DNA from: Amphiscolops sp. MND2022
Lineage: Eukaryota
Direction of reading: 5' to 3'
NCBI GenBank assembly: GCA_964187785.1
Contig: OZ076409.1
Span: 66,528,001-66,592,000 of the forward strand
DNA: 64,000 bases
This document shows, one piece after another, positions 1,771 through 59,200 of the stretch (the stretch's first letter is position 1; every line of letters starts with the position of its first letter). A program made the position numbers and the translations under genes. The notes below the pieces were generated by a model. It made no database searches and had not been told where the DNA came from. It saw nothing but the letters and a program-made list of their open reading frames with translations.

Positions 1771-2224
1771 ATGCCTTCTCATGAGCTAGCTGAAGAACTT
1801 GATCCTTCCAACTCAGACCATGATGCTGATGGAGAGCATGTAGATGTCATACCGACATCTCCAACACCTAATGAAAATGATGGTAGAGTGAGTGAGACTA
1901 GCCAACAGAATCCATTGGATGACCCACCCCCGCCTTATGTAGAGTTCGAAAGTCCTCGGAACTCTAATGAGAACTTGGATGACGATGCAGTTTCTGGGGA
2001 TGATATACCAGTGGACAACATCATAATTGAAGAAGACAGCGTGTCAAATGAAGAGACATTTGACGCTCAGCAACGAAACGAAACAATTTATGAAGATGAT
2101 TTTCCGGTCGAAGTTTTATATAAACTTGATGAAATGATCAACCGACCGCGATGGGTGATTCCTGTTCTTCCTGGCGGTGAACTTGAAACTCTACTTAAAG
2201 CTAGCATAAGATTGGCAAAGCAAG
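1771..2224 (+). CDS. USP9X: USP9X coding exon 1
   Basis: ATG...[26 protein letters not shown]...KQ; donor CAAG|GTAATT; upstream acceptor TTTTCTAG at 1751. Confidence 0.9.
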
Positions 2225-29200: not shown

Positions 29201-32200
29201 TCATCTACAGAGATAAACTTATCCATAATATCCAGGAGAAATATGCACTGGTCACGTTGGTTGCCAACAGTCTCACTGATTACATGCAGAAAATGAAGTT
29301 GTACAGCAAGGAGAACCCCGAGTACAACCCCAACTGTGTCAAAGAGGGTTCACGGTTAGAAAAACGTCATCTAGGTTCTTTCATAGTTTCATTCAGGCTT
29401 TGGCTACATAACTAAGCAGAGTTTCAGAAGAAAAGACGGACTTTATAATCGGCTCATTTTATACGAAAACGTGCCCGACTATTACTGCGACTTTTTTCTC
29501 CAGACCACAGAGTTCACACTGAATCGTCCAGTTGCGACAGATTTTACGCCTTAGATCTAAAGCATACCAAAGGGTCCCCCTTTCAGTTTACCACATTTTT
29601 ATCTGATCTGAGATCGAATGGTCCCCCTTTGGGTATTTTTCCGGTACTTTTTTGAATTTTTTTATATCGACAAGGGTACCGACAAATCAGGTAGAGAAAA
29701 CCGTTTTTTGAACCTAAGGGATCGTCCGTGAATATTTTTTGGCACTGCGAAAATTCGATAAAAACAAAACACCTTTTAGCCCTAAATGGACCAGATAGTT
29801 TCTGCAAACTTCTAAACGCACCAATTGACCGCATGGTAGAAAAAACTCTTGAATAAGATTTTCAGACGATTTTACACATCATTGCACGCCTTTTCACGGA
29901 ATATTGACATGATGCCTCCGAAATTATGAAAATGGGGCCAAAAAATCAGAAAAAAAATTGAGCGCAGATTTTCCGTTTTTCCCGTTTTCGTTTGTGGCCA
30001 CTCTATCCTACTGGTATCAAAATATGGTCAAAGTGGACCTGGCATGTTTTCAAGGAGCCAGTGCCCCCAGCCCTGCAGTTCAAAAATTGATTTGAAAGCC
30101 CTGATACTCTTCATTCGAACGCGCTATAAATCGTTTGTCGGACTTGATTAGTTTAGTAATTGCAGTTTAAAGTTGAAGCACCAGATTTTTGAATGGATCC
30201 GAAATGTTGCTGGTCCATTTAGGGTTAATATATTAAACTTTAGCTATAAGAGAGACGCCGACTTTATGCGTTTTCGACTTGTTTATATTCACGGCAAAAA
30301 ATCAGGCGGCGTTACTTATCGAGCTTGAAATATCACTTTTTGAGGAGTTTAAAATAGTTTTTCTTAATTGTTTCCTTCAAGTCGTTTCAAATATAGAGCT
30401 TAATCAAATGATGTAGATTCAAGTGGACCAGTTTTACGCAATTTTGTGGTCGGAAAGTTTTTGGCTAACAATCAATTAATTGTCAAGAAAACAGTTCGCT
30501 CGATTGTGCGCATTTTTCTTGCTCATTTACACATTTGATGTTAGTCATTTGTACCTTGGAAATTCCAAGTTGGAATCAACCATTGGCGATATGAAATGGG
30601 AGTTTCCTTTTTTGGCTCTTAACATGAAATTTGGGGTGAATGTGGGTTTTGTGTTGCAGGTACACACATCTGCAACAAGTGGAGGAAAGACTGGACTTTT
30701 TGTGTTTTGTTTTAAAAGACGGACAACTGTGGCTTTGTCTGGCTCAAGCTGAGGACATCTGGGATTCACTGACTGAGAAATCTGTGTACAGAGAAGACAG
30801 ACAATGTTGTTTTCGGTGGTTCTCCAAACTTATGTCAGACGAGCCAGACTTGGACCCGGAGATCAGTGAAAACTTTTTTGCGTGTAAAATTTTGACTCTG
30901 GACACCAGTTTGCTTTCAGACGAAGGCATCGTTTGTTTTGATCACTTTTTTAAACTTGTCAACTGTCGGGCCAACAAGTTCAAGCAAACATCACGCAGTA
31001 AGTCGGGCTTCTTTTTACTAGACACGGAATTGATTGGGCTGAATTACTTGTGGAAAATAATTGTCAACTGCAGTGATGAGCTCGCTTCCAAAGCAATTCA
31101 TCTTCTCATTGAAATTTTTACCAATCTATCAGTGCAACTGAAATCGCAAGCTATCAAAATTTACAACCAGTTCATTGAGAAGTGCATGAGTTACCTGAAC
31201 GAATCCTTTTCCAAAGTGTGCAAAATTTCTGTCTCGGATAAAGACTTTCTCAACCTTGTCACAGAAGAAAACAATCGAATGCAAAGAGTTTTGACAGTGT
31301 TGAAAGAGTTCATTAGAAAAACAGATTCGGCGTTTCTCTCAGAAAGAAAATGTAGCCCACTGATAGAAGCTTGTTGCGGCAAATACTTGGTGCTAATTGT
31401 TCGTATCGTCAATACAAGCCGACAGATCGATGATTTTTCCATCGCTACCCATACACATGCAACTGTAGCCCATTTGCGCAAACTGATTCTGCAAAAGTTC
31501 AACTTCACAACGTCCAATGCAATCTGCGAAATTGGTTTCAACAACGCAATGATAGATTCCTGTTTTGACACGTTGACCTTGAAAGAGTATAAATTGGCCC
31601 ATAAGAGTCTGATTCTAGCAAAGGTCATGTCATGTTCACCTGGTGTGTCAATGGGAGCAGCTCCGGCTCTGCCGTCTAGTGATGAAGAAGATGACTTGGA
31701 TCAGCCAGCGTATACCAGAGGAGGACAAAACCAGGCTTTACATTCTTCAGGTGCCGGTCCGGTGGATACAAGCGACGCTGAGTGTCTCCTACCTTCGTCA
31801 ATTTTCAGCCAACAGAACGAACACCTTTGCACCCTTCTTAGAATATGTGATTGGGCCGCCCAACATCATCTCACTGCTCTTTGGAATACAATAAGGGATG
31901 AGAAAAAATTTTGATCGTTTCAAAAAGCTGACAATCTGAGTTATAAATGAACTACCAAGGACTGTTAGTTTTGAACAATATAAAATTACTTCGTTATGCA
32001 GTCAGTTTTTATTAATTGGCGTTTTCGAAGAAAAAGGTCGACTCCTACAATTGCTAGTTTTTTTCGTCAGTTCAACGCAATTGGTCACAATTTTTGTGCA
32101 CTGGGCACTTTTACCATAAGCACTTAGTACTTGATTTTGAACGCATCCAAAGCCTCTAACATGAAATACAAACCCATTCAAAAGCAGAAGCCCTCCCCCT

Positions 32201-35200
32201 TTTTCACTTTTTTCGGCACTGAGACTTCCCTCCTTTTTCGGCTTTGTGAGACTTTTCCGAAAATTTTTTAATGTCTCCAAAGGCTCCGTCTTTCAATTTT
32301 TTGATATTTCGCCAAATTGGATTTTCAAAAAGCCCAAAGCCCCTTGCAATTTTTGGAACTGAGATTTTTCCAAATGATTTTTCATCTTCGGATTTTTCCA
32401 AAATTAGGTTTTCTCAGCACGCTGTATCCGAATTTTTTTCAAGATCGGCGTTTTTTTCATGCGGGTTTTTCCTATGTTTTTATCGAAACCCCCTCTCGGT
32501 TTTTCTAGAAACGAAACGTTTCGCTCAATTTTCCCTTTTTTGAGAGGTTTTCGGTTGAGCAAGATGGGTTTTTGCTGTTTCCAGTTGGGGAAAAAGTGGT
32601 TTTTGAGTCATACGTATCGTTTCGGGTATTTTTTGGCGCTGTAAAATTGATGAAAAGTGTCCTTTTGCGTATTTAAAAAACTTTACCTTTTTGAACCTTG
32701 GAACGGCTGACTTGGGCCGTTCCCCTTGCTTGTTCATTTCCTGTTACCACCAAAAGCAATTAATTATATGTTATTTATAAATTGTTACATTGAGAACCGA
32801 TGCGATCTAGATCATTGGTACCTTTTCCAGCCAAAAAATCATTGTATCAACATATAGAATCTATAAAACGTTATCAAATCTTTTCCAATCAAGATTACTT
32901 TGTATTAGTTCATAGAATCAAAAATCAAAGTTGATAAGAGACGCTATGGAAATAGGACGCAAGGTTGTCTGAGTTTGAATATATTTAATTTTTAGTCGGT
33001 GCTATGTAGCTTTTTTCGACACTGTGCGATTGAGAACTTTTTCAAAATAAGATTTCTTGACGCTTTCAAGTACGTGTGCTTTTTGAGCCTATTTATGCCG
33101 TGGCTGGCTTGTTGACTAAAATTTATTCAAATACAGTCAATAATTTTTCATCCCTATGAATCTACCGTACCAGGCATCTAATCTCGCTTCTGCCCTGTGA
33201 CTCCCACGTGGCAGACAGAGTGAAGGCAGTGTGTGCTGATCACGCCACTGGCGAGGAGGTGTCACTCATGCCCACAGTCGAGTCTCTCTTCTTCTCCAAT
33301 TCCCCCAACCAGGTGCTATACTATTTGGAAGTGCTCCACGTCCTCTTGTTCCCCGCAGTCGACCCCCTCGGTGAAGAATCCAGATTGTTCCAAGTGAGTT
33401 TTCGTCATTTTGACATTCCGTGCTTGACAATGAACCCTCGCGAATGTTTGTACAACATTTCATTTTGCCTCATTTTGTAGATTCAGCACAGAGTGGGGTT
33501 TTTAACACCTCTCCGAGGTTTTTAACAGTTAACTAAAAACAAAAACTGCTGAAACTTAAAAAGTTGTTTTGAACAATTTAATCGCATTTTTCATCAGAAC
33601 GAAGCATCCTCATTATGAAAGCCAATTTCGTCGGTTTTTCTTGGCCGAGTGGATTACGAACGTCACTGTACATATCCCAGCGAAGAAAATGCTCTTTCAA
33701 TACCAGCAGATGATTGAGGCAAGTCAAATAAGACACATAAGTCGCCAATATCTTTAGTGATTTGGCCAGTCAATACCTGGGCTTTCACCCCAATTGACCT
33801 GGGCGTTTTTTTTTAAATTTTCAAAAAAATTGACAAAGAATTTTCAATCATAAATATCTCCAACTACGCGGACCTGAGGAACGAACTATAGCGCGTTTGA
33901 AAGCTTTGATATTGGGCTTTCATTTTGGTCAGCTGAGCCCCTGTCGCCGCCCGCCCCTTCCTTCAGAAATTTAGTTTCTTTCCGGTACCGCCGCTTTGCG
34001 GCAGTTCCGCACTTCGTGCGGCCCGCTGGGCGGCGGCTTGTGGTAACAACAGAATATTATAGGGGTATGTTGCACCAGGACTTGTGGCAGGGTATGTGGT
34101 TGGTTTTTTCTATTGATCAAAGACTTTTGAGAAAACTGGATTTCGTCAAAAACTGAATTTTGAGAAAATTTAACTATTTTTTGTTCAAAAAAAAAACATT
34201 TTTCTCAGTTTTGGAGACCTTTTTCTAATGCTTGTGCCATTCAAATCAATCTAGGTACCAATTACTTGTTGAAAAAAACTGTGCTAGAGAAAATGGGCTA
34301 CTGGCAAAAGGAATCAGAATTTGGAAAAAAGGTATGCTGCTTTAAAGCACCACTAGGTTCATTGGGGTTAACAAAATCTTCAACTTTGCAATTTACTTTG
34401 CTGAATGATTCTTTATAATCATCCTTTCTCGATCCCAAATATGTAATGAATTGAGAAATCAGTTATTCATTCGAAACAAGATCCTCCGCGTTTTTTATTT
34501 CCTTGGGAGACGTATTTCGGATGCAATAAATGGGCCAGAAACCATATAGGTGGTACTGAACGCGAATAGCGCTTTTCTGCAATTTCTAGTCAACACCATC
34601 AGCTATCGAGCTGTAATCAGCCTCGAGCACATCTAATGCTGCGGCAACAGGGGCGAGGCACTTTAATCCATCCTCAACATTTTTGTAGATTGCCAAATTT
34701 TTCAAAGTATCAGTTGCGCCAAGTAACCTTGATGAGTTTCCGTTTTCAATTTTTGTCACTCATCCTTCTGCTTGTAACCATGACATTGGCTGGTGACAAT
34801 TTTGAAATAGGGGGCGCAACTTCGTTTACTCGACTTACCAATTGTGATGATACCAAATCTTTTGCAAGAAGGTTGACCTGATGAGCAGCACATCCATATG
34901 CAATAAAGTTCCTTTTTAGTCGGCGCATTTTAGTAGAAAATGTGCCCGACTATTACAGTGGGTAGTTTTTTTTAGACACGAAAGGTCCACTTTTTTGTTC
35001 ATTTGTTCAACAACCTCAAACCTCAACAACTTCAAACCTCAACAACTCCAACCTCAGAAGCGCGTCCAAAACGAAAAGAAAAAACAAAACAGACGTCCAC
35101 AACCTCGAAATCACACTAAGGATCCCCCCACTTTTTTTCGGAACTATGCGACTTTTTGAAACTTTTTGGATTGAAATTTTTTCACCAAATGGTCCCCCCT

Positions 35201-38200
35201 TCAATTTTTAGGAGTCGGAAAAAATTTTCGACTACTTATGCAATCGTGCTGTTTTTTTTTCTTTTTGTTTTTTTCTCCCGACCTTTTCATGAAAATTTCA
35301 AATTTCTCAAAAACTGTCCATACGATTTTCACAAAATTTTGCACAGTCATTCTACACCCAAAGGGGCCCCTGCGTGTGCAAAGGCATCAAAATCGTATGG
35401 CCTGGATGTGAGAAACATAGCCAAAATTAGCCCAAAAATGGCCAAAAAACAGCCATTTTTCGACTTTTTTCGATTTTCTCAAAAACTGTCCATACGATTC
35501 GAACGAAATTTTCTACAGTTAGTCTACACCATATTAGAGTCCTATATGTGCAATGGCATCAAAATCGTATGGCTGGGATGTGAGAAACATAGCCAAAATT
35601 AGCCCAAAAATGGCCAAAAAACAGCCATTTTTCGACTTTTTTCGATTTTCTCAAAAACTGTCCATACGATTCGAACGAAATTTTCTACAGTCATTCTACA
35701 CCATATTATGGTCCTTTATGTGCAATTTCATTAAATTCGTATGGCTGAGATGTGAGAAACACAGCCAACTTTAGCCCAAAAATGGCCAAAAAAACAGTCA
35801 TTTTTCGATTTTTTCGATTTTCTCACAAACTGTTCATACGATTCGAACGAACGCGAGTCAGAAGGAAAAAGACTTAAGCCGACTCCTTTACCGCATATGC
35901 GGCTCTGGTTTTTGATGTTTTGCAACACAATGGATGTCAAAAAATCGCAAAGGGTCCCCCCTTTTACATTTTTCGGCACTGTGACACTGTTCAAAAATCT
36001 CATTGAGAAAAATTATTTTGGGAAATTTTTTCATGTCTCCTAAGGGTCCGCCCTTCAATTTTTTTAAATTTTTTTGCAACCAGCTGGAGTTTCACAAAGC
36101 CCGAAGGGTCCCCCTTTTAAATTTTGAGCCTTAGATATGGCGCCGACTTTGGCCGTTCTCGGCTTGTTTCTTCTCATTTTGACCATGTTCTCAGCATTGT
36201 CTGTTATAATTGCAGACACTTCAACACCAAAATCTTGTTTCATTTTGTCCATTTCATCTTCAGCAATGTCCGCCAAAATTTCACTAGTATGAGGAACCGA
36301 ACTAGCATCAATTGTCGAAATCAGATAAACATTTTATCAGATAAAGCAATTATTGACTCGTTCGAAATGTTGCTCCAAACATCCATGCAGATAGAAACTC
36401 GTTGACCATTAACGTTTTCCGCACATTTTTGTCCGCAAGTCGCTTCCGTGTGGGTGGCTTATATCCTGGGTTTAGTGCCTGACAATTCTTTAAACTCTCT
36501 GGACTCTACTGCTCGGAACGTCAAACTATTGGCAAAAAATTCCCACTTTCAGATCAAATTTATCTTGATCAGCTTTGCTTGTGGAAACAGTGAAATTTGT
36601 GATTCCGGGATGTTTTGGAGCTCTAGGGCTTTGCTCCCAATCTGTGTCATGATTTCCAAAGTGCTGGCGCATTTGTTTGGCGTTTCCAACCATCACTTTA
36701 TTGCACGTAATACATTCTGCTCTGTTTTCCCCTAGGTCTTGTCTTCCGTTAAAAAATTCCCAAATGGGGGTCTCGGGGTCGACCGTCACTCATTTCTACC
36801 TGAAAAAAAAACTTTTGAATTACCTGAAAAATTTTTGAATTGCGTTAAAAATATGTTAAAAACTAATGTTAATTAACGTTAAAAACATATGTTAAAAACA
36901 TGCGTGTTTTTAGCGTGCCCACCCTGATTCAGCAATCTGTTGCTTCACGTTTCCTCATGTTTTGCTCTGCCAGGGGTACTCGAGCGTAAATTAAGTGTAT
37001 TTCTTGGTTCTCCAAGATGAACGGTACCTAATTTGTGGTATTTCCCAGAGTTTCAGGTTCATATTTTGAAGAAATAGTAACAACAAAAATTGAGATGCTA
37101 TAACCAAGAGATGTGACAGCGAGAGCGATAGCGAAGTAAAATTCTGAAATTTAAATTAATATCTTGAAAATCGGTTTTTTTAATTAGCGATAGCGTTAGC
37201 GAACTCATTTTGTTGTAGCGATAGCGATGAAATCAAGCCATTAGCGATGTTAGCGATGAAGTGGTTAGCGATCACACCTCTGGCTATAACTATACCTATC
37301 TATCATGTTTCACTCGAGGCTGATTTATTTGAGGTTTTCTTCTCAAAAATTCTAAAGGGGGCTCAAGCTGGAGTGTTATTTATTCAAATAACAAAACCTG
37401 TATCCTCAGATTTGGATATTTTCATTCAAACTTATCCTTTTTACATTTTTTTTAGATTTCAAAAATTGTAAATGCTTTGAATCTACTTCGAGTTTATCCC
37501 AAAAAATGTAAGAATTGTATACTATTTGGAAATTCGTTGCATTTGAAGAAATTTTGTTGCACTCCGAAGGGTCTGATTTTCACATGTAGATATATGCAGA
37601 CGAATTGTAATAATGCCAATCAAACCACAGCATAATCCGGGTTTACCGATGGCCTAGGTTTGGCCTTAATGATGTTATAGTCTAAGGACGTTACAACCGA
37701 AGAACTTTATGCACTCTTAATAGAGCGCGGTGGAACACATATTACATTTATAAGCGGCTTGACTTAATAACCGGTGACGTTATCACCGGCTTACATTGTA
37801 AAAAAACTGTAAATTTTGAAATTTTTCATCTTTGTGCAGAAACATGAAGATTTAATTTTATAATTTAGGATCTCTTGCTTATTGAGTGCTTGAACAAAAG
37901 TCATTTTGACTGGTTCTTCCAGTCTCGTATGCCCACAAATCACAAGGTCTCAAGAAACCAGACGAATGAATCATTCATCGGAGATCATCTCTCCCTTTAA
38001 TTTTTTAATCTGTTTCAGATGCATTTCATAAAAGCCAGAGGAGTTGATGTCATTCTCGCCATGTTGACAAAAAACAACTTTCTATCCAATGCTGACATTT
38101 ATACTAAACGGTTAGTTGGTTGACCTTCTCCTGGAGCAAAAGTGAAGTGGTTTTCAGAATCGTTTCTTAACTTCTTCCTGAGCTGATCTGATTTACTTCC

Positions 38201-41200
38201 TTTCATTCAACTTTCGCCACCTCTTTAAGTGAAACTGTCAAGACCAAACGCGTTGCGAGAGGCGAAATTTCGTAATGAAGATCATTGGTATGGATACATT
38301 TTTTGCTTGAACAAAGTACTTTTTGCAGAAGTGCATACACTGTGGTGGTGAAAATGTCGAAGCTTCTCTATTGTTCGATCGGATTCGCGATTCTGCTCCA
38401 CTTGAAAAACTCACCTGATGCCCTGACATCTACTGCTTCGGCAACCTTTTCTGATGCAGATGGTGCTAAATCCTCGGCTGCTGCTGCCGCCCAAATCAAG
38501 TTCGAAGGCCTTGAGGTCTGGGGTTATCAAAAGTTGATTCTTCAGAAATGTTCTATTTTCCCTGTCAATTATTGTATTTTTCAAAAACCAGGTCTTCCAT
38601 GTTACCAAAGTCAGCTTGACAGTATCACGAATTTGAAGAAATTAAAATTTTTTCATTGGAACATTGTTTTCGAGCTTTCAAAGCTTATGATACCGGAGTT
38701 GATGTTTGAAAATCAGGTGTCTGAAAAACATAATAAAACTTTGATTTTCATTTTGGAAGGGTTGCGAAATATCGTTAAAAAATTGTGATATAAATTTGAT
38801 AATGCCTGCTGCTGAAGGTGGGAATGCGTTCAATCCCCAACTGCTTGGACAACATAATTTTGCGACAAGTGGCGTCTGTGTTGGCCTGCCACATGTACTC
38901 AAAATACTCATTATCGGAGACTGAGCAAATTATCCCTGACGAAAGCACCATCAAGTCGCTCTTCAAGTTGGCATGCTCACCCACTGGTTCTGTTACTTTC
39001 GACAGCTCCCATCATTTCTCAAGTCTGGGCGGCAGTGTTTCTGGTTGCGTGCCCCACAGCGAGGAAAACTCAGGACTCCCGGCTAACAAAGTGAACGCGT
39101 TGAAGGAACCCAGTCATGAAGATATAATGCTCTCATCGGAAGCTCTGGAGGTGTTAACCATCTGCTTCACTTTGAACCCATCACAGTTGGAAACGTTTTT
39201 GCAGAAGGAGCAGCAGTGGAATTTTTTGGTGCAAGAGATTCTAATCAAGTGTCCCGATAGGAGTCTGAGAGTGACGTGTTTGGATCAGTTGCTGTTAATA
39301 GCCACGCGGGCCAATGTGGCATCGCTACCACGTGTGGTCAACTTTTTTGTCTCAATTCTGCTGAAACAGATGACTTATGCTGCTAATAATGCCGACAGAA
39401 GCGACTCGTTCTTCAGGTCAGTTAATTAAAGCCTAGTTTCGAAAACAGATGAAACCAGACTGTTCTTGACTGTTTTTAGGAGTCGGAAAAAATTTTCGAC
39501 TACTTATGCAATCGTGCTGTTTTTTTTTCTCCCGACCTTTTCATGAAAATTTCAAATTTCTCGAAAACTGTCCATACGATTTTCACGAAATTTTGCACAG
39601 TCATTCTACACCCAAAGGGGCCCCTGCGTGTGCAAAGGCATCAAAATCGTATGGCTGGGATGTGAGAAACATAGCCAAAATTAGCCCAAAAATGGCCAAA
39701 AAACAGCCATTTTTCGACTTTTTTCGATTTTCTCTAAAACTGTCCATACGATTCGAACGAAATTTTCTACAGTTATTCTACACCATCTTAGAGTCCTATA
39801 TGTGCAATGGCATCAAAATCGTATGGCTGGGATGTGAGAAACATAGCCAAAATTAGCCCAAAAATGGCCAAAAAACAGCCATTTTTCGACTTTTTTCGAT
39901 TTTCTCAAAAACTGTCCATACGATTCGAACGAAATTTTCTACAGATATTCTACACCATATTAGAGTCCTATATGTGCAATGGCATCAAAATCGTATGACT
40001 GGGATGTGAGAAACATAGCCAAAATTAGCCCAAAAATGGTCAAAAAAGGGCCATTTTTCGACTTCAGAAGGAAAAAGACCTAAGCCGACTCCTTTACCGC
40101 ACATGCGGCTCTGGTTTGATTCCATGTTTTCTCGTTTTTTTATCAGTCATATTCCGAGTTCTATGCAAAAACATCGTAAAATCTCAGGTATGAGCGCCCA
40201 CGGTGTATAAATCTCAATAAATTTTGCGCAGTAGAGAAAATGCTTCCAGTATATTACGGAGGCGTCATTACCGCGTAATTTTCTTGTTTGTTACAAAATT
40301 TTGGTTTGAGACAGCGCTGAAGAAAAAATAGGATGCGGGTTTACCAACCGTTTTCAATGTCTCATAGAATGTCGATGAGCTACAGTTATAATGTACCGAA
40401 GTTTGTCCAAAAATTTCCAAAGTCTAGTGCGCATGTTTTCCACAATAAGCCGTAGTGGTATGAAAAGTACCCTCGATTTTGTTGAAAGATAGATCAGGAA
40501 GTTTAGAAAAGTTGATGTGGATCTGGAACCGATGTTATGAACGTTGACTTGATTTAACTGCTTTAGATTGGTGTGCAAGTTGTTGGAATACGCGCGATTC
40601 CTCAATATATCGATTGAGAACTTGTCGCAATACCTTTCGCAAGAGATCACCTTCATAGACGAGACTAGAAACAACTGGCTGTCTGCAGTGGGGGTCGAGA
40701 AGGAAATGACGTTACCACATGATTTTTTTCTGTGTGGCAGACTTAATTTATGTCGCGAGCTGGTCTCCTTCACCAACGACGAGGTCGACAAGATCGTCCC
40801 GGGGTGCTCTTCGTTGATACAGGTTAATTTGTTCGTTCACTAATTAACCTTAAGCTGTTTATAAAAGTTAAATTGTAATGAAATTCTTACCTTTCAATTC
40901 AAAACATTGAATGAATTGAAATTTAGGTCGATAGAATTGAAATCAGGGGTGAGCAAATGAATATTATAATATATTGGACCATGTGTTCAATTTCACGACC
41001 CCCCCCGCCCAGGTACACCTTGTTGGGAGTTTCCACTCCCCACCCCCAACACGAAACCACATTTTGTTCTTGAATAAAAATATGAGAATATTATATGAAT
41101 GTATATACTTAGAGGATTGTCTCCACAACTGTTCGGACACTTCAGGCAAAAAAAATACCATAATTTTTTGGTATTATTGTCCAAAATAGCAGAAATTCAC

Positions 41201-47200: not shown

Positions 47201-50200
47201 GACGTGCCATATGGCCATGCCTCAATTTTGCTACTTGGCGAAGGGAGCGAAGCGACCGAGCCATACAACAGATATGCTAAACTCTTTAAGGAAATAAATT
47301 TATTTAATGACCTTTTTTGGTCGGCTTAGTGAACCGTCGACTTAGTGGAACCCCCCCCCCCCTGTGCGTAGAGCGCCAAGAAACGCAAATGTGACTTCTG
47401 TGTCGGTTTTGAATAGAATTTTATTAGAGCACTTAACGGAGTTATTAGTTACAGTTATTACGAAGTGAACATCGGGTGAAATGAAGTCGGTTGACATGAT
47501 AGGCTAGAATGATTCTGACTCCATTTTCGCACCCGAACTCCGATCTCTTTTTTGAAGATGGAAAATGTAATTTTTTTGAAGGTGGACACAGTGAAGAGAA
47601 TGTGTATCAAGAAGCTGCCGCCAGTGCTCATTATCCAACTAAAGAGGTTCGACTATGATTGGGAGAGAGATTGCGCCATCAAGTTCAACGACTACTTCGA
47701 GTTTCCCTTCCATTTCGACATCGAGCCGTACACTGTCGACGGACTGGCCAAAATTGAAGGTTTTATACGCATATTTGATAACCTGCTGAAAACTCTTAAG
47801 ACGATGGAATAAGTGCTTGATTTTTGTGCGCTGGAGTGAATGGATGCGTTTGTGGTATGTGTAGGCGACAACTTCAATGAATTTCAGAGACACATGTTAA
47901 GCTTGACTATTTTGCAACTAGTTATATTGCCTATTTAGAGTTTTGATTTTCCAATGTGGTTCAGCTGGTTAACAGTTCGCGAGTTATTCAATTCCTTGGG
48001 TGTTTTTTATTTGGAATGCGGTTTCGCGGTCTCTTTTATAGTTTGAAAGTTTCAGGGCAATATTAATGTGGTGTTTAGTCATCAATTCAATTAGTCGCTG
48101 CCCTTAAAAGAATGGATTCCATCAAATGTGCGTATCCAACTTACAGGACCTTCGTAGAAATCTATTACATCCAAGGACCTTCAAAGCTTCTTTGAAGGAA
48201 TCCACTCCCCGTTCCCGAAAACCTGAGGAGAAGAAATATTGAATTCATTGTCCATCTTACTCGCGGTTTCGTATTTTCTGACAATATGTTCATGCCTCAA
48301 ACTTGTTTCAGTGTTACTAGTAAGAGCAACATTCACCGTAATTCGTTCTTAGGTGAAATAATCAGAGACGACTCTTTCGAGACACCACCACAACTGTCCC
48401 CTACATGTTCGGGTCTGGCTGTGAGTGAAGAGATGTCTTCTGGTCTGGGCAGTAAGGAGTCTCTTAGTATCCCCACGGCTACTACACCCGACTCAGAGTT
48501 CCCCCCTGACGTGTCTTCTGCCCCCCAATTGGGGTCAACTTACAAGCTTATGGGGGTAGTCGTTCATAGTGGACAGGTAGAAACCACTTTTTGTTGCAGC
48601 TAAATAATCCGTTCTTTGATTCACCAAATTATTACTTTCTCGTTTCAGTTCACTGTTCAACTACCCGGGTTGAAACTCCGTGCAAGTCGTAGTACGATCT
48701 CGCTAAAATTTTAGCCGTTATCGTGCGACGATTCGTATTATTATGATTGGCGTATTAAGATTAATACGAGATTATTAAGATCGTAATAAGAAATCTATGA
48801 TTGAGTTCATCTACATGTCCGCAACACACCCCAGTAAAAGATCGCTTTCAACAGTTTTCTCAAGCTCCAAATTTTGAATGAAGAAATCAGATGAATACTC
48901 CATTTTTGGCAATTTACAAGTTACTAGGCTATGATCATTTGTTATACCCCAAGTTGATAAAAACGCTATTGCAAAAGCAGAGGGTGCCTTGAAAAATTTA
49001 GTGAAATGAATGAATTAATTTATTCATTTCACTAATTTTTCAGGCGCTCTCTACTTTTACAATAGTTTTTAGTTACATAAATATGCTGCATAATTGCCAT
49101 GCTTTATCATTTACTGTAAGAAGACTTAACAAGCAGGGAACGGCCAAAATCGGCGCTATATCTAAGGCTCAAAAAGCGCAAAGTTTTTAAAATTGTAAAA
49201 GAGGGAACCCTTTGGGCTTTTTGAAACTCCAATTTGTTGCAAAATATGAAAAAAAATGAAGGGGACCCTTTGAAGACAAGAAATTTTCGACAAAGTTTTA
49301 CCATGAGATTTTTGAACAGTGTCACAGTGCCGAAAAATGTAAAAGGGGGGCTCTTTGGGATTTTTTAACATCCATTCTGTTGCAAACTATCGAAACAATT
49401 GAAAGGGGACCCCTTGGTGCAATGCAAAAATTTTCGATAAAAGTCTCATAGTGCCGAAAAAACTAAGTGAAAAACACCAAGATAGCCAAAGGGGATCCTT
49501 AGTATGTTTTCGAGGTTCTGGACGTCGGTTTTTCTGTTTTGGTTCTGAGGTTTCTAGTGTTTTGAACCTGTGTAGTTCAAGTTGTTGAACAAATGAACAA
49601 AAAGTGAACATTACGAGTATAAAACTACCCACTGTAAGAGTTGGGCACTTTTCTTCAAAAGCGCCGACTAAAAAATGCTTTTCGTGGTATGAACTGCATG
49701 ATTGATACGATCTTGCTACGACCTTACTACGAGAGGCGCGATAGGGTTGTGAGGCAGTGATTTATTTGTCATTGAGCATTTCGATTTTGTGGAAAAGCTC
49801 AATTTGGTAAAGCCGATTCGACAAAAATTTAACAGGAAAAATGTTGCTGTGAAAAACGACTAGGGCCTGAGAAGTTGTATGCATTGTCATTCCAGAGAAC
49901 TCAGCGGATGCATTTTACAAATAGACTAAGAAAAATCTCGACCCGACTTTTTCAAACTTTTCAACTTTCGAGGATTCATAATAGAACGAAGGCTGTATTG
50001 TACTATTTTTCTAGGCATCGGGTGGTCACTACAACAGCTACATCCAATGCAGAGAAAGAGACCCACTAGCCAACAAAGGTCAATCTGGCAAATGGTTCAA
50101 GTTTGACGATGGAGATGTGTCCGAGCTACACATTGATGACGAGGCCGCCGAATTACGTAATCAGTGGTTCGGAGGAGATAATGTCGCAGAACAACTTAAT

Positions 50201-53200
50201 TCTTCGTTCACGTCCTTTGACCAGAAGAGGAATTCAAGTTAGTCAGAAGCGCTTTTCAGTCGGCGACTTTTTGCGACTCTTAGTGGCAATTTTTAAAGTA
50301 GAATGAAAATTTCCTCTCTGAAAAGTCCACTTTTTTACAATCTTTTAGACTGAGATCTAAGGAGGAGTATTAACAGACGCCAAAGGGATCTTTGTTCATT
50401 GAAGCCACCAGATGTGATTTTATGACCTTTTTTTGACAGCATAAATGTAATAATTTCGATGTGCAGCTCAATTTTTGGATTGCGAAAACGTTATTTTCCA
50501 GGAGTTGGAATCTCGGTCTCCTGTCAGTTTCAGTTTCTATGTAGAAATGTGCTTCTTGAAGGTTTTCTCGGAATACAATGTAAACACAGTAAAATCCGTT
50601 GAATTCGTATCTAGGGAAATTTATGGCTATCCTACCCAATACTGAGTTCTGGTTATTGATATTGATTTATTCAATCTGTGAAACTACGAATTACCTGGAT
50701 TCCTTCCATTGAATCTCTCTGGTTGTCCTTGGCCCATTGTTTCATTTTTGTTTTAATTTAGGTCGACGACAGAAGCGTTGGTGGAACGCGTACTTGCTTG
50801 TCTACGAGCGGCGGCAAGAGCTCAGTGACCAGACTAGTCCTGTGCAGCTGTGCAATATGCAAGCATCCGCTTTGGCCACTGCTCACAGGCCACACTCACA
50901 GGATCACCACCTGAAGCTGGTCGATGTCACCTCGGATGAGTCATCGTTGACCTCTTTCGACAGCGAAGAAACCACTTCAGCAAAAGGCTGCTCAGACAAT
51001 AATAAAACCTGTGTCCCCAATAGTTCAACTTCGTCCAAGTCTTCTCTTCATCTTTCTATAACCAGCTCTTCTCAGAATAACAACAACAACAGTAGTAATA
51101 ATTGCCTCTTGAAGATGCCACCGTCCATTTCGAAAGCTGTGGAACAGCAGACTGTCAATTTTGCCCACAATAAAGTTCAGTTCATGCCAGAGTATCTGAA
51201 CTTTGTTAAAAATCTGGTCTCAAGTTGCCAAGGTACGGGTGTGCGTGCGATAGTTTTCTGTATCAGTTGATTTTTTATATCACTGATGTCGAAATTTTGT
51301 TTTTGAAGTGTTTTGCTGTTGCTGAAGTGTATCCATGTTTCTTCTACATGATAATGAACATAATCAAGTTTGTCGTATAAGCTCAGATAGTTCTAACCGA
51401 ACTTGTTCAAAATTCAAAGCTGAAAATAAATTCAATTAATCAGGCGACAGATGTGCAGAAAAACTCATGTTCTAGAATCAGGCCGGTTTTTTGTGTTTTG
51501 TCTAAAAAACACCATTAAAAAATCCAGCGCACAGAAATGAATTTGTTTTTAGAAATGTAGAAATTCAATTTGGAGTATAGTATATTTATCATAATCAGCG
51601 ACACCGCACGCCCGTATGCGAATAAATCAAGGCTTCATGATGGACATTCGAGAGGTCAACAATCAAGGTCAAACGGTGGCCGACCAGTTTGGGATGCTGT
51701 CAATGCAACTTCTGTGCAATGTCGTCTTCAACACTGTGCTGCACACGAAGAAGGTTCTCCGCGGGCCGGCCCATGATTGGACAGATTTGATGATCACGCT
51801 ACTGAAGCATGTGGCATGCACAAGAACGTGGCTGGCGGAGAACTGGATTTTTAAGTACAAGAAATTAATATCCGAGTACATTTTGGACTGTCCATCTGCC
51901 GAAGTTCGTCAAGCTATTGTCAAGTTACTTGTGTTTCTCTGCCACTTTTCCAACTTTGATGGGCCCTATCTTACAATACAGCAACGTTAGTGTTTAAAAA
52001 CCCTAACTTTTCTTGCAAGGTTCAGAAAGTGCAAGATCTTAAAAATATGATTTGGGCAGATTTAAGAAAATTGTGAAAATTTGTGCCGAAAAGAGGGGAC
52101 TCTTCTATAATTAACGCATTAAAAAATTTTTTTTTTTAAATTTTTTTTAGCTGAATCTTTGAATTCCTCCCACATATTCAGCCGAAGTAAGTCTCTTAAA
52201 GTCTGTGAAAATTGGACTGTAATGTAATTCTGTGGTGCGGAGAAAAAACTATTGACTGTAGCAGTCGGACGCTTTTTCTTAAGAAAACACTGACTAAAAT
52301 TTTAACTGAAACTTTTAAATATCTTTGATGCATTAGAGTTCTTGCGACTCTGCAAAGTGTCGCAACGCTGCCAAAAAGACTGCATTTTATTGAAGTGCCC
52401 ATTCTTCTGCCCATTTAACTGGTTTTCCTCTTGGTTCTTGTTGGTAATCTCCGATTTGAATGGCCATATTAGAGCAGTAGAATTTTAAAAAGTCCAAAAA
52501 AACTCATTTAAAATGATCGCTCAATTATAGAAAGGAAATTGGCTCGCAAAAGAAAACAGCATGAAGTGTTTTAATTTAGCCATGTAAATCTAATCATGCT
52601 GTTATCACTTCTTTAAGTTCAACTATAGTAAGAAATGACCCAGAGCCAAGTTTCTGACTTCGATATCTCGGAATATCTAAGTTGTCAATTTCTGTAAAAA
52701 TCAGAGGAAACTTTTTTGACCTTGTACCGGAAGTTAATTCGCTGAAAAATTTGAACACTCAGTGGGAGACAGAAATGTTTTCTTTGTGTGCAGGTGAGAG
52801 TGGCAAGATTTTGGCGACACATGCGAGTCTGAAGCTGAGTGACTACATAGTGAGTGAGATGGCGTCTCTGATGCGCAAAGACGTGAAGGAGTCCTCGAAG
52901 CACCTCAACCAGTACTTCCACTTCTTCCTCCACTACTGCTCTTTTGGGCCCGACCAAAGGTGCTACCTTACTCTGTCGTTATCACTGAACTGCTGGTTTT
53001 TACACACAAAAATCACATATTGCTATTCATTAAGTTGAAAAATTCTCAGCATTAGATAGGTTTTCCCTGTCTCGCAAGACGTGGATATGACGAGAAAATA
53101 TGCTATATCCGAAATTTATTTATATCGTATATCTGAAAATCTTATTATTATGAGTTTATTCGTAAAATACAAAACTCCGATGGCGGTTCAATTGAAACTC

Positions 53201-56200
53201 CCGCTTTTTGACTTTGAAGATGTGCAAAGACAAAAAATGTGCCAAAAAAAGCCTACATGCGAATTTTGATCGTTATAACCCAACTATATTACGTTATATC
53301 AGAAAATGTTTTCAGTATTAAGTTTGACAACTTGAAAAAAATTTTACCTCCGCGGGATCCAAAGGTTTGACACTTTGCCCACCAAATAGACTTGCCCAAC
53401 TAATCTGAGTAGCCACTGTACCAAGTGAATAGGACATATGTTCAGAATGAACTCATTTACTTGAATTATAGTCAAAACTAACTTCTGTCAAATTTTGATG
53501 AAAAAAATATCCCCACTGAAACTATTTTTTTTGTTTTTCCGGGAACAAAAAATAAAGATTAGTAAAAGCTTTGAATTAGACATTTTCTCATGCTGTGTCA
53601 AAGACTGAAATGGGCCTGTTAAGAGCTTGAGAGTATTCAAAAACACTATAGGTAGCCTGGAACTCCCTAAGTAGGAAGTCAAAACTGCTAATCGTTTGGT
53701 GCCAACTCTATTAAATGAACCATGTGGTATTTTCTTCGGCTTTTTGTCGTCAGTAATTGACCACTTCTTTTTTTCTATATACCGTATTTCTTCGAATATA
53801 AGTCGCCTCCGAATATAGGCGGCCCCCGATTAGAAGCCGTATAAAGCCTGAAAATTTTATCCTAAAACCATAGCTTTCCGTATTTCTTCCAATATAGGCC
53901 GCGAAATCATTACGAAAAACAACATACAAGCCGCGGCCTGTATCCGAAGAAATACGGTAAACAGCTATGAATATACAGTCAGTTTGTTTCCAAGTGATGT
54001 TTGTTTTGGTGTAGGTGTCAGCTGCTGAAGCGAGACGTGCCTCTGCTGATGGTGAATCTGGTGTTTGAAGAGAGCAACAACCAGATCAAGTACCAGACCT
54101 CGGAGTTCGCCAAACTCTACCAAGTTGTCTCTATCCTCGTCAGGTGCTGCGACCTCATGCCTTACTGCGAGCCTTCGTCTGGCAAAGAAGTTTGTACACA
54201 CAAAGCCATCTATTGAAAAAATCTTCATGTCTTTTGCAGTACCTTCTCGATCTTTTTGATTTTTGAAAGAGGCTAGTGAACTTCCTGTCGTCTCCGACAA
54301 TCACTCAAGCAAAATTCTGTTCATTTCTCGTATTGCGTTTCCAAATTATCGGAAGGCCCAACTTTGTCATAAATTTGCTCTTAGATGTCTCGAACTTTGC
54401 TTGGTAAGGCCTACTCCGGTGTTTTTTTTAAATCCTTTGGTTGCCGAATGGTTCACCGCGGTTCCAAATTTTTGGATCCATACATCAAAACCGTCAATCA
54501 TACCTGAAGAAATTGTAATCGAGAAATTGAGATGTACATCTCCATTTCTCGATTACAATTTCTTCAGGTATGATTGACGGTTTTGATGTATGGATCCAAA
54601 AATTTGGAACTGCGGTGAACCATTCGGCAACCATACGTTGAGTGCCTTTGCATTCATCAAATTAGATTAATTCGGTTCTCTGATCGTAGAACTTTACCTA
54701 ATATAAGTTGCGATTGATTTGCTTTGTCTTACTTTCAATTGCATTTTGGCACATGAGGAACGACCTTAAGAGTAAACCTATAGATGTCATAAATTTAAAT
54801 GGCATCAATTACATTTTTTAGTGATTTTTTTAAAAACATTGTTTGTAAATCGTCATGTGTGCGAAATGTCAGTAGATGTTTTATAATCTTCTTTTGGCAT
54901 ATTACTGTAGCATTTCTGTTTACGTTTGGTGTTTTAGATTCATCAAATGATGGCGAATCGGTACGGAGACCGAGACTTGGAGATACCGGTGCCAATCTCG
55001 GTTGGTCTCAAGGAGCGGTTGTTGGATGAGACAGTGTACGTCAAGAGAATCATCGAGGAGTGCCCCAACACCGAAGAAACCTGCTTCCTCATTTGTGTTA
55101 GTCAATAAACTGCATTTTATGAAACTGAAAATGAACAGGCTTATTTCATTGTTCAATTCGTTTTTTTCTCAGACTTGTATCGTCAACATTTTATTCCCTG
55201 GCTTAGTATCAGTTTTTTTCTTGTGGTACTTCAATTCTATTGATGGATGTTTTTTAGTCGGCGCTTTTCTTGAGAAAAGAGTCGACTATAGTCATGGTTT
55301 TTCGTCAGTGTTTTTTTTTCGATACACTTGAAGTGACCAAAATAGTTCTACCAAAAGTTCTACAAAATTTTAAGACGCAAAATTGTACCTTTTGGCCTAG
55401 GGAACTGGACTATAAGAGTTGTTCCTTTTTTAGCATAACATACAAAACTGGATGAGACTAAAGGGTACAACGTCATCCCTTTCAGTTTTTTTCGACATTG
55501 CGAGATTTTTTTCACCAAAAGGTTCTCCCTTCAATTTTTTTTATTTGCGACAGAATGTATGAAAAATCTCAAAGTGTCCCCCCTGGCGCGTCAACCGATC
55601 CAACTTTTGGGTTTCTCGGGTACTGTGGAAGAGAATACTTTGACACTTTGAAGTCCTTTTGCTATTTTTGAGCCTTAGATATGGCGCCGACTTGGGCCGT
55701 TCCCGGCTTGTTTTCTTATGAACTTAACATAAACATACCAGCCTGTCGATAGGCAAACATACCAATGATGTCCAATTATATTCTTTTTAATTCAAAATTC
55801 AAGTTTGAATTGAGAATTCTATAAGAAACATAAATTGAAGTTTAAAGTGGCTGAGAAATGAAATTTAAAAATCACTACACGTTTGATGGTAAAATTGCGG
55901 ACCAAAGTTTTTTGAAAACAAGCCGGGAACGGCCCAAGTCGGCGCCATGTCCAAGGCTCAAAAATAGCAAAAGGACTTCAAAATTTCCAAGTATTGGTGA
56001 ATTGGGACTACTTTTATGAAAAAAATTTAGAAAAAAAGTCTCACAATGCCAAAAAACTGACAGGGGGGACCCTTTGGGGTTTTTCAACATCCATTCTGTC
56101 GCAAAACATCAGAAAATTGAAGGGTGAAAAATTTTTTATTTTCGGAAAAAAAGTCTCACAATGCCGAAAAAAACTGAAAGGGAGGACCCTTTGGGATTTT

Positions 56201-59200
56201 TCAACATCCATTCTGTTGCAAATTTCCAGAAAAACTGAAAGGGAGGACCCTTTGGGATTTTTCAACATCCATTCTGTTGCAAAACTCCAAAAAAAATTGA
56301 AGGGGGGCCTTTCATGGTGAAAAAAGTTTTTTTTGAAAAAAGTCGCACAGTGCCGAAAAAATGGACCCTTTGGTCTCGTCCGGTATTGTATGTTACGCGG
56401 GAAACATTTTTGGTTCAGTTCCTTGGGCCAACAGGTACATTTTGGCGTCTTCTGGAACTTTTGGTAGAACTATTTTGGTCAGTTCAGGTGGTCTTAAAAA
56501 AACACTGACGAAAAGCCATGACTATAGTCGACTCTTTTCTAAAGAAAAGCGCCGACTAAAAACTGAAGTCGTTTTCTGCAGTAGTATGCGAGTGTATACC
56601 GGAACCGGTAACTGCCACTTAGGAAAGTGTGGCTCAATACTTACAACGACATTTCAGTTCGCAAATTTACAACTGCTGATTCACGTGTTGAACTATTTTC
56701 AAAAAGTAGATTTGTTGAATTTTAAATTGGGTCTTTCGTGCAAGACTTCATTCTATAAATAAGAAGTAAGATTACAGGCTTCAGTCAAATAGTTATAATA
56801 ATATAGTAATCAAGTAATTAAGCACGACTGACAGCACAAAAACACTTTACGAAATAAGAACAACTATGAAATAGGTTTAATGAATTAGCTTGTTTTGCAA
56901 GAAAAGGTCGAGGGATTTAGTGAAAGTGGTTTGAGGGTGGTCAAAATTCAGCACATGGTTTCTAATCGGCTCGTTTGCACTTTTAATAAACGATCGTGGA
57001 ACTATTCGTACTTGTGAACTTCTTGGCTATTGGCCTACAAAACCAAGAATTATAACTGCGAGTATGTATGGGCTTTGATTCCTTCTCTGTGGTGAATTTG
57101 TTGATTTTCTTATCTGTAGGCTTGGGTAAAACAATAGAAAGCCAAGAAAATTCCTGAAATTTTATCAATATTTAAATATTCATCACTGATCTCGACTACA
57201 TTTTTCATTGTAAATGCATGGGTCTTTCTTGCAAAAAGAAATCCACAATTTTGCCTTGGCTTTGATTGGCCCAAAACTAATTTCAAGACATTACCAATTG
57301 TATCTCCTGAAAAAGAAACGAAAGCATCGTGTTTGTTCATCAAAATGGAAGTTTTATTATTTAGTTGACCATAAAAAAGTATCTATTATGCATTCTTCGT
57401 TTCAAAAACCCGCCTCTGATGAAATGAAGTTCTGTGAATTCATTCTATTTAGAGGTTAAGTTTTGAATGTGAGTTTTGTTGCAGTACCTCTCTTGGGAGA
57501 ATGCGTCGTTCTCTGCGGCTGTGCTGACGGACATTCTGTGGCAAATCACCTTTGCATACGCAGCTGACCTCAAACCGTATTTGGATCTTCTTCTGGAAGT
57601 GCTAAAGATCCCTGACTCATGGCAGACGCATAGAATCATAAAGGCTTTAAAGGGCACGCCGAAAAAACAAGGTAAAAGTATGGCTCCGACGTTTCTTGAA
57701 TTGGCAAAATGCATTTTTGGGTTGAGTCAAAATATTTTGAACCCGTTGATATTATTAAGATTGACCTGTGGTTCCAAATTAGGTGCCAAATGTTACAAAA
57801 TTGTCCAAAATGATGTCCCATATGCCAATTCAGTAGTAAATGCAATCAATGAAAAATGAAATCAGGAAGTTTCTTCATTATTTGCAAACTTAGATATCAA
57901 GTGCCCAACAAAACTTTGGAATGTTTGTTTATTTGATTTTCAAAACTTGGATGATAGCAGAAACCAGAGCTAGTTTTGTTTTGGTCCAATTCTTTTTTTA
58001 CAAATAAAGGTTCAATTTATTTCTTACACTATTGTACTAATTGAAGTAGTTAAATCTGTTGAATGAACAAAATAGATTATCAGCCCTTAAAATTAATAGA
58101 ACATCATACTACTGTTTGGTTGAGTAATTTCCTAAAAGCATCCTTCTGCGCCAACAAACCGTCCATTCCTCAATTCCTTCGGCTAGCTGCCAGTTCTTTT
58201 GGCAGGCAATCAAAGAAAACAGTTACCTTGGTAGCGTGCAAAAGCGCATATATACCTTGCAGTGGAAAACAATTGTGTTCTAGACAGCAAAGATGGTTTG
58301 TTCGAAACAATTGAGAAAAGCAAGACGCATTTTGCAAGGCGAGCTTACCTGGCGATCAAGATGCTGACGAAGCTCTTCAGTCAGAGCCCACCGGCCCTCT
58401 CCATCCTGCGCCGGGATCCAGAGATCAAAAACCAGTGGCTGGTGGTCGTCGATTGGCTCAAACTCGAACTAAATCGCAACCAGGGATGAGCAATTGAATT
58501 TATCTCGACAGCGTTTCACGTAATCTAATGTCCCAATTTGCCAGGAGTGCCTTTATAACGAGCGGGGTCTGTCAGTTTTTGAAGGGAGACCTTTAGGCCA
58601 GATTTGATCGGTAAGGGAGTGGTCGAAGATTTGCAACCAAGTTGTACGGAACCGTTAAGGCAACCTGGGACACCACAGTAGGTGTACGGCAGCTTTATTG
58701 TTTATAGAGGTAAAAAAATGTAGGATCACATTGAATCTCGATGTTGATTGGAAAACCGATTGTAATACAGTCAGTTTTCAGTTATCCGGACCTTGTTCGA
58801 ATAGTTTTCACTTCTTCGATAGCGAGAGAAGCAAGAAATTATCGTAGTTTTTTTTGAAAAGCTGACCAAGATGCCATTGAGTGGCTGAAACTGTGCTTTT
58901 ACTGCCGATAAAATAAGTTTACTACCGATACAGGTTTTCTTTGCTTCATGGGCAAGGTTGGCCTGTTTTAAAACAATGTTTTAAAACACGCCAATAAAAA
59001 ACGTTTTAAAACATCAATAAAAAAACGTTTTGAAACATTTTATTAAACATTTTGAGATTTGATTAAGATAATTTATTGTTTTTTTATTTTCGATTGTTTT
59101 CACCCCCATATTTTTTGAATGTGATATATCGTTTATGTTCAAAAATTCGTTTATGTTCAATTCGTTCAAAGCTGAGATGCCAACTGGATAACGAAAAGAC

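Follow-up and report, generated by a model that had tools for sequence, protein, structure and literature searches.

The window analysed here is a stretch of 64,000 nucleotides (nt) from Amphiscolops sp. MND2022 (contig OZ076409.1 of assembly GCA_964187785.1; G000:C1:66528001-66592000 in a whole genome of 1.07 Gb). It holds all coding exons but the last of the gene for USP9X (FAF-X), three introns of which begin with GG. The closest named USP9X clusters, with 55-57% identity, are those of Convolutriloba macropyga and Symsagittifera roscoffensis, and the source animal is therefore an acoel. The exon map is based on P0117, a 2830-residue protein encoded by an 8805-base Logan contig of a close relative, which belongs to the same 90% cluster as P0001. 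All exons could be mapped, at about 70-100% identity exon by exon. Combined with an enumeration of possible junctions, this places 26 introns inside the window, the number given in the original prediction: 22 with GT donors, one with a GC donor (43258-43701) and three with GG donors (introns 8, 15 and 26, Table 1). A 27th intron, with a GT donor at 59812, runs beyond the window.

The donor motif AG/GGATG, in which the slash marks the splice junction, is present at 31896, 43890 and 58484 as predicted, and positions 33173, 45632 and 59559 are in each case the G of a normal acceptor AG. Joining the exons at these points restores the right phase, also as predicted, and yields the residues of the relative exactly (TIR/HLI, IVD/SVD and RNQ/FAI). 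The exons are open and mostly 85-100% identical to those of relatives. AG/GGATG occurs four times on the plus strand of the window, and three of these are the exon ends in question. At all three sites the GG junction is the sole best-scoring one with an AG acceptor, and the best GT or GC alternative within 150 nt costs 155, 23 and 64 alignment points for introns 8, 15 and 26, respectively. Since these alternatives damage the USP9X protein, homology indicates that the three introns must be cut as AG/GGATG...AG. A search for micro-exons that might rescue an upstream GT or GC donor produced nothing for introns 8 and 26 and, for intron 15, a single poor candidate (VDN in place of the conserved VDS). 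A-to-I editing to give an IU donor at +3 would, judging from the junction map, leave the frame off by 2 and find no suitable AG.

The recurrence of the 7-mer had been taken to speak against sequencing error, an argument that holds at five mapped sites. Separate ENA gene calls, which may share reads with this assembly, imply the same G at +2: P0114 reads into intron 8 and ends IR-DEKKF, and P0288, whose intron sequence differs, has DIQ-GWLI at one of the dynein GG sites. The context AG/..ATG is found at 5/5 GG donors and 2/188 GT donors, so it is not due to chance. All five mapped donors carry GG at +1/+2 and thus lie outside the GT/GC definition of U2-type introns; other U2-type features are present, namely G+1, the AG acceptor, a U1-compatible exon end and +3/+5. 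U12-type introns have an RTATCCTT donor and a TCCTTAAC branch site, and by eye the GG introns fit neither (minor small nuclear RNAs (snRNAs) were not searched). On these grounds the GG-AG junctions are almost certainly real.

The original prediction saw in these introns a distinct GG-AG class, and this class does extend genome-wide beyond USP9X, with the same fixed AG/GGATG donor, into dynein and clathrin genes. Twelve dynein heavy-chain regions were mapped with 102 of 150 reference proteins (at least 2500 residues), admitting only donors that start with G and acceptors that are AG. A margin of at least 8 points was passed by 177 of 199 junctions; the 22 dropped include four weak GA donors and one weak GG donor. 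The 177 junctions comprise 166 GT, 9 GC and 2 GG donors, and both GG introns read CAG/GGATG, a context that the method does not impose. The frequency of GG is thus 2/177 in the dyneins, or 5/203 with USP9X, a gene picked for having GG, which suggests that about 1-2.5% of introns here are of this kind. No confident GA donor was found among the 203 mapped junctions. The bare motif AGGGATG is not enriched in 664 kb (41 occurrences, 36.6 expected), and a de novo scan for the donor together with a distant partner could not tell GGATG apart from five control motifs. The genome has about 18 dynein heavy-chain loci (L076-L151), and in many of them 20-30 introns are packed into 50 kb.

In all five mapped GG introns, AG/GGATG at the left end is matched by an inverted, CATCCCT-like copy 9-17 nt before the acceptor AG. 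Written as a repeat YAGGGATG...CATCCCTR, the left ends have AG/GGATG in 5/5 cases and the right ends match at 6-8 of 8 positions; the right-hand 8-mers of the dynein introns are CATCCCTC (16 nt to the intron end) and CTTCCCTC (11 nt). Pairing of the intron ends had been described as strongest in the GG introns. It is indeed strong there (-20.2, -19.1 and -30.4 kcal/mol), but GC intron 14 (-37.9) and GT intron 20 (-30.5) equal or surpass it. A pairing score of at least 22 is reached by 5/5 GG, 3/10 GC and 7/188 GT introns (Fisher p 4e-7 for GG versus GT), with a threshold chosen after seeing the data; at 24 the counts are 4/5 GG and 6/188 GT. The helix is real, and its first explanation is as what remains of a hAT transposon's terminal inverted repeat; GC intron 14 and GT intron 20 are perhaps introns from other inverted-repeat families. 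The 3' ends of the GG introns are poorer in T (fraction 0.34 versus 0.47, p 0.002), and their positions -11 to -4 match the exon end at 17/40 bases (background 2.0/8, p 0.011).

Some further introns were noted in passing. In dynein region B (11783-12129; L082:1783-2129), a GC intron has the donor CAG/GCATG and a CATC-type partner 11 nt before its end, and could possibly represent a GG-to-GC conversion within the same class. Long reverse-transcriptase-like frames of putative retrotransposons lacking long terminal repeats lie in USP9X introns 27 (60875-63603, plus strand) and 2 (9874-12584, minus strand).

Table 1. The USP9X gene, its unusual introns and their repeats, and a candidate sixth GG intron. 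Positions are those of the window, except for the last line; nt, nucleotides.
Feature	Position	Strand	Remarks
USP9X (FAF-X), coding exons 1-27	1771..59811	+	last exon outside the window
Intron 8, GG-AG, phase 2, 1278 nt	31896..33173	+	missing from P0001, P0002, P0003
Intron 8, left repeat AAG/GGATG across the donor	31893..31900	+	first 3 nt remain exonic
Intron 8, right repeat CATCCCTA	33149..33156	+	same as ends of the genome's hAT transposase elements; AG 17 nt on
GC-AG intron 14	43258..43701	+	strongest end-pairing of the gene; missing from relatives; other terminal sequence
Intron 15, GG-AG, phase 2, 1743 nt	43890..45632	+	missing from P0118, P0120
Intron 15, exonic copy of presumed 8-bp target duplication (43879-43886), then left repeat CAG/GGATG	43879..43894	+	
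Intron 15, right repeat CATCTCTG, 8-nt duplicate (5/8 versus 43879-43886) and acceptor TAG	45614..45632	+	predicted 8+3 spacing
GT-AG intron 20	51233..51631	+	end-pairing and 11-nt spacing; missing from P0123
Intron 26, GG-AG, phase 0, 1076 nt	58484..59559	+	missing from P0294
Intron 26, left repeat CAG/GGATG	58481..58501	+	about 20 nt of pairing with the intron 3' end
Intron 26, right repeat ending CATCCTTT	59530..59550	+	AG 9 nt on
Candidate sixth GG intron, 1.7-kb CAGGGATG-bounded element	L142:4470-6186	-	7/8 duplication, AG at 10 nt; a lead, not counted

The ends of maize Ac/Ds elements read C/TAGGGATGAAA and TTTCATCCCTA and are flanked by 8-bp duplications (PMC3260210). The acoel genome contains at least 150 matches to the hAT dimerisation domain (PF05699), and 7 of the 30 hAT transposase loci that were read, at their right ends only, end in CATCCCTA. 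Within a single 31-base length class, the pattern YAGGGATG-N300-330-CATCCCTR was found at 27 places, as against one for the control. This class holds 10 of the 203 mapped introns, and the strict pattern would miss all five mapped GG introns, from which the genome-wide number may be estimated, though not counted, as hundreds to a few thousand. Eight of the 27 bounded elements have 6-8 of 8 flanking bases duplicated (chance 0.006 each), and only three similar pairs exist among the 27. When such an element is cut after its first three bases and then at an AG 5-21 nt past its end, an open, coding-like frame is restored in 10/27 cases, compared with 5.6% of 3000 random joins (p 1e-6). All ten have the CAG end. 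Two could be given an identity: one, at G000:C8:23664271-23664611, joins residues 775-805/806-830 of clathrin heavy chain and the other joins the halves of calcium-binding EGF repeats; four further left flanks that were scanned had no Pfam match. The mean duplication match in the ten, which have perfect 8-mers and were selected for perfect ends, is 3.8/8. Locus L189 holds the full predicted structure, with a 7/8 duplication, TAG at 11 nt and an open frame. Of 15 cases, 10 have a spacing of 11 modulo 3 (p 0.009) and five a spacing of exactly 11, although some latitude enters here, since the acceptor of the ten coding-like elements was selected by its coding score. For the candidate element in L142, a GG-AG cut restores a transporter-like frame that resembles Sugar_tr/MFS clusters of the ESM Atlas (16-29% of members) and has no significant match in Pfam. 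Derivation of the GG introns from hAT insertions is, on this comparison of ends, flanks and frames, very probable.

Other transposase families of this genome end in CAGCCCTA, CAGCTCTA, GGCCCTA and GGCTCTA, but donors of these kinds were not seen. Young hAT-like MITEs (miniature inverted-repeat transposable elements) with yet other ends (CAGGGTTA and TAGAGGTG) and perfect 8-bp duplications lie in dynein introns (L098, region E 21394-21855; L102, region F 12117-12936).

Several observations weigh against a hAT origin followed by passive decay. Only 2/5 mapped introns combine the exact 11-nt spacing with a recognisable duplication (5/8), and introns 8 and 26 (spacings of 17 and 9 nt, duplication 1-4/8) need later indels. 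Genome-wide, CATCCCTG-N8-YAG shows no excess (557 versus 735 for the control; 345 versus 186 for N9), and these spacing counts are dominated by repeats. The transposase-bearing families end in TAG-type repeats and the introns in CAG-type repeats; young CAG-type copies without transposase exist (L182, L184 and L204). In the genome, the ends of introns 8 and 26, like those of the L142 element, exist as single copies, so that they do not form a multi-copy family today. Searching with the 20-nt end pattern of intron 26 gave, besides that intron, a single near match, which is unrelated. The absence of the introns from relatives, described below, rests on protein calls and not on DNA. Lastly, the right repeats of the five introns have kept 34/40 bases and the adjacent duplication 21/40 in its best register (p 0.003), which is more than a purely passive relic would lead one to expect. 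Because it is better kept than its neighbour, the right repeat probably does something, either as a source of a branch A and pyrimidines or by pairing. Its six changes are all to pyrimidines, and only two keep a pair.

ENA gene calls of relatives behave as single reading frames, which use alternative start codons or starts within an intron and run into the next intron. In P0001, P0118 and P0294 (92-97% identical) the frame continues across introns 7, 8, 14, 15 and 26, in calls of the C. macropyga and S. roscoffensis clusters across introns 7, 8, 14-16, 18 and 20, and in P0286 and P0289 across one dynein GG site. Absence at the same position is seen in P0001, P0118, P0294, P0002, P0003, P0120, P0286 and P0289. 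Since the calls of relatives read through these sites, the introns are, on evidence at the level of protein, recent gains. A scan of JGI metagenomes found no relative. Comparing P0118, P0286 and P0287 with the window and with L081, relatives have private introns that are absent here, and vice versa. Intron gain in this acoel group appears to be rapid and independent, and to include plain GT introns, of which USP9X intron 7 is one.

We propose that a non-autonomous Ac/Ds-type hAT element (YAGGGATG...CATCCCTR, 8-bp duplication) inserts into an exon to give the arrangement exon-duplication-CAG/GGATG...CATCCCTG-duplication-NAG/exon. The first three bases of the element, usually CAG, would mimic an exon end, and the 5' cut would fall inside the terminal repeat at AG/GG. 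For the 3' cut, an AG of the host shortly beyond the element would serve, as a rule the NAG following the target site, 8+3 = 11 nt beyond the right repeat. Splicing would then drop one copy of the duplication and swap the host NAG for the CAG of the element. As excision from GG to AG takes away 11 bases on the host side while 8+3 stay behind, the message would be unchanged if the host NAG was CAG, and an AG at 8, 14 or 17 nt would likewise preserve the frame. The residues at the three USP9X sites (R, S and Q codons) appear compatible with a pre-existing AG. In surviving insertions the interiors would decay and fill with other repeats and the ends would be retained, the right one as a branch or pyrimidine element or as a pairing partner.

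The cut itself could be made by an ordinary spliceosome of the U2 type in which U1 and U6 are canonical. U1 contacts A-2, G-1, G+1, A+3 and G+5, and the ACAGA box of U6 contacts U+4/G+5. The G at +2 may be tolerated because the terminal repeat supplies all of these positions to both snRNAs. Crude duplex energies of canonical U1 with the GG donors are -5.0 to -5.6 kcal/mol, with means of -6.3 for GT and -4.2 for GC donors. Human GG donors give 13-24% full-length transcript in minigenes (PMC12805630).

The original prediction had offered a variant U1 or U6 snRNA as one possible reader of these donors, which the searches do not bear out: 0/23 U1 loci have a 5' end that fits GGAUG and 10/10 full-length U6 copies read ACAGAGA, although the searches scored only 42 and 48 candidates and a divergent copy could be missed. 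Among the 23 U1 loci, eight have the 5' end ATACTTACCTG, six ATACTTACCTT and three ATACTAACCTG, two are variants seen once each, three are interrupted and one is degenerate, and a second U1 search, blind to the 5' end, gave 16 places that all lie within the 23. A sub-threshold U6 fragment on a small contig (L041) reads ACAGGGA. Given the lack of a variant snRNA, the GC-like pairing with U1 and the activity of human GG donors, we favour the ordinary spliceosome, which probably removes the GG introns. For the account as a whole, that of recent, hAT-born GG-AG introns cut by this machinery, the balance of evidence is moderately favourable.

The snRNA loci have features of their own. The U1 variants L014, L020 and L021 (ATACTAACCTG) show complementarity to GTTAG, which is the most frequent donor (31/203), and the six variants with ATACTTACCTT fit AAG exon ends. 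Three loci of different U1 types (L008, L015 and L022; about positions 1370-1510 on the U1 strand) are interrupted at one shared point close to the U1 5' end by the same insert, apparently a U1-targeting mobile element; in L015, 17 nt of U1 sequence are duplicated and there is a tail of tandem ATGTTTT. The U6 genes L025-L028 (G000:C3:315168-319044) form tail-to-tail inverted pairs, about 60 bases apart, in an arrangement repeated twice.

An alternative that retains the hAT origin is that pairing of the repeats makes or guides the cut, as a fixed form of hybrid SOS-spliceosome splicing with AKAP17A, CAAP1 and RTCB. The hundreds to few thousand introns would then be hAT insertions removed via their paired ends by a precise, domesticated hybrid SOS, some having later turned from GG to GC. 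SOS and hybrid SOS splicing (Zhao 2025, PMC12779559) resemble the acoel case in the 5' cut within the left repeat, the canonical AG downstream and the paired ends, and the same geometry is described for Tc1 beside a host acceptor. Paired inverted repeats with a 5' cut inside the repeat are what the GG introns have; dependence on the three proteins is a prediction. Retention of the right repeat beside a decaying duplication, the T-poor 3' ends and the end-pairing of GC intron 14 and GT intron 20 also fit. However, SOS splicing, as described for Tc1, Tc3, Tc4 and Hsmar2, is imprecise and involves long intact repeats, whereas the acoel repeats are short and decayed, with stems of only 8-20 bp over 0.3-1.7 kb, and are fixed in essential genes, a single exact junction being required in USP9X, clathrin and dynein. 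Moreover, the donor retains G+1, A+3, G+5 and the exon AG, as U1 would require, and the pyrimidine changes of the right repeat mostly do not preserve pairs. We consider this reading unlikely, though it is the main rival; if true, these introns would represent a still-existing step from transposon rescue to true introns.

Less probable still is a lineage-specific change in a spliceosomal protein (U1-C, Luc7, Prp8, SNRNP27K or similar) that makes GG efficient, with the hAT repeat merely supplying the sequence. Essential genes bear GG introns here, while human GG donors are weak, and similar changes have been proposed for Eurytemora (PMC5714493) and Fritillaria (PMC11282704), but the donors are GGATG only, and the lack of any confident GA donor argues against a general relaxation. 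An artefact, be it a sequencing error at +2, the use of nearby GT donors or dead, transposon-broken genes, would draw on the fact that the junctions rest on protein homology and not on RNA; it is very improbable in view of the recurrence of one 7-mer at five mapped sites of three genes and again in clathrin, the cost of 23-155 points for the alternatives, the open, well-conserved exons and the separate gene calls with the same G at +2. The variant snRNA is the least probable of all, since the U1 family, diverse as it is with at least five 5' ends and one that matches the common GTTAG donor, has 0/23 members that fit GGAUG, 16/16 places found blind to the 5' end were already known, and U6 is uniform.

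Transposon-born introns, hAT families included, are already known, as are GG donors in Eurytemora with a different, unfixed motif. In the literature searched, which left most subscription papers and some supplements outside, there was no report of acoel GG donors or of an Ac-type or other hAT repeat as a GG donor. A hAT origin would give a class of animal GG donors a concrete source, the donor being a piece of a well-known transposon end, and the sum of three element bases and eight duplicated bases, equal to the 11 removed, would explain silent insertion. Standard annotation will break 1-2% of introns here, including those of clathrin, dynein and USP9X. These introns also offer short natural substrates for asking whether paired transposon ends help to define an intron.

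Introners (bioRxiv 2022.06.06.494994; PMC12130899; PMC11282704) are alike in their recent, lineage-specific gain, terminal inverted repeats and a duplication that restores the frame. Their hAT-class families include one in a tunicate (PMC12130899), and in an Aureococcus family element bases and an 8-bp duplication stay in the mRNA (Gozashti). Unlike in introners, the GG donor lies inside the terminal repeat and the interiors are mostly single-copy, so that similarity-based searches would miss these introns. The donor classes named by Gozashti are GT, GC, GA and AT, with an 'NC' class that could hide GG, and acoel names are absent from the introner supplements searched (PMC12130899; files 13 and 14 not covered). 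As judged from their sequences, the acoel GG introns act like introners and are not a family in the published sense, lacking sequence-similar copies.

Splicing of maize Ds uses GT donors near the element end and is mostly imprecise. Ac/Ds elements share with the acoel introns the terminal 8-mers and the 8-bp duplication, and Ds-like copies share little beyond their ends; Ds1 acting as an intron has also been cited (PMC3260210). The nonconventional introns of euglenids and the non-canonical introns of Fritillaria (PMC11282704) likewise have a MITE-like origin, paired ends and a weak pyrimidine tract, but the acoel introns keep G+1 and the AG acceptor and are greatly outnumbered by ordinary GT-AG introns. 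The original prediction had further pointed to GG and GA donors in Eurytemora and Oikopleura. Those of Eurytemora are real but have a different motif, and in Oikopleura GA-AG, not GG-AG, was reported. The GG donors of Eurytemora affinis read GGAGA, GGAGG, GGATT and, twice, GGAAC (PMC5714493, File S1). Like the acoel, this copepod has an exon AG that is obligate, A at +3, a canonical U1 and introns that ordinary genes have gained recently (PMC5714493). Its unusual introns make up 10-12% of the total, are mostly GA with free +4/+5, and have had no origin proposed; those of the acoel amount to about 1-2.5%, are GG only, and have a fixed GGATG, a 3' inverted partner and a probable hAT origin, which suggests looking for the same origin at the unexplained donors of Eurytemora.

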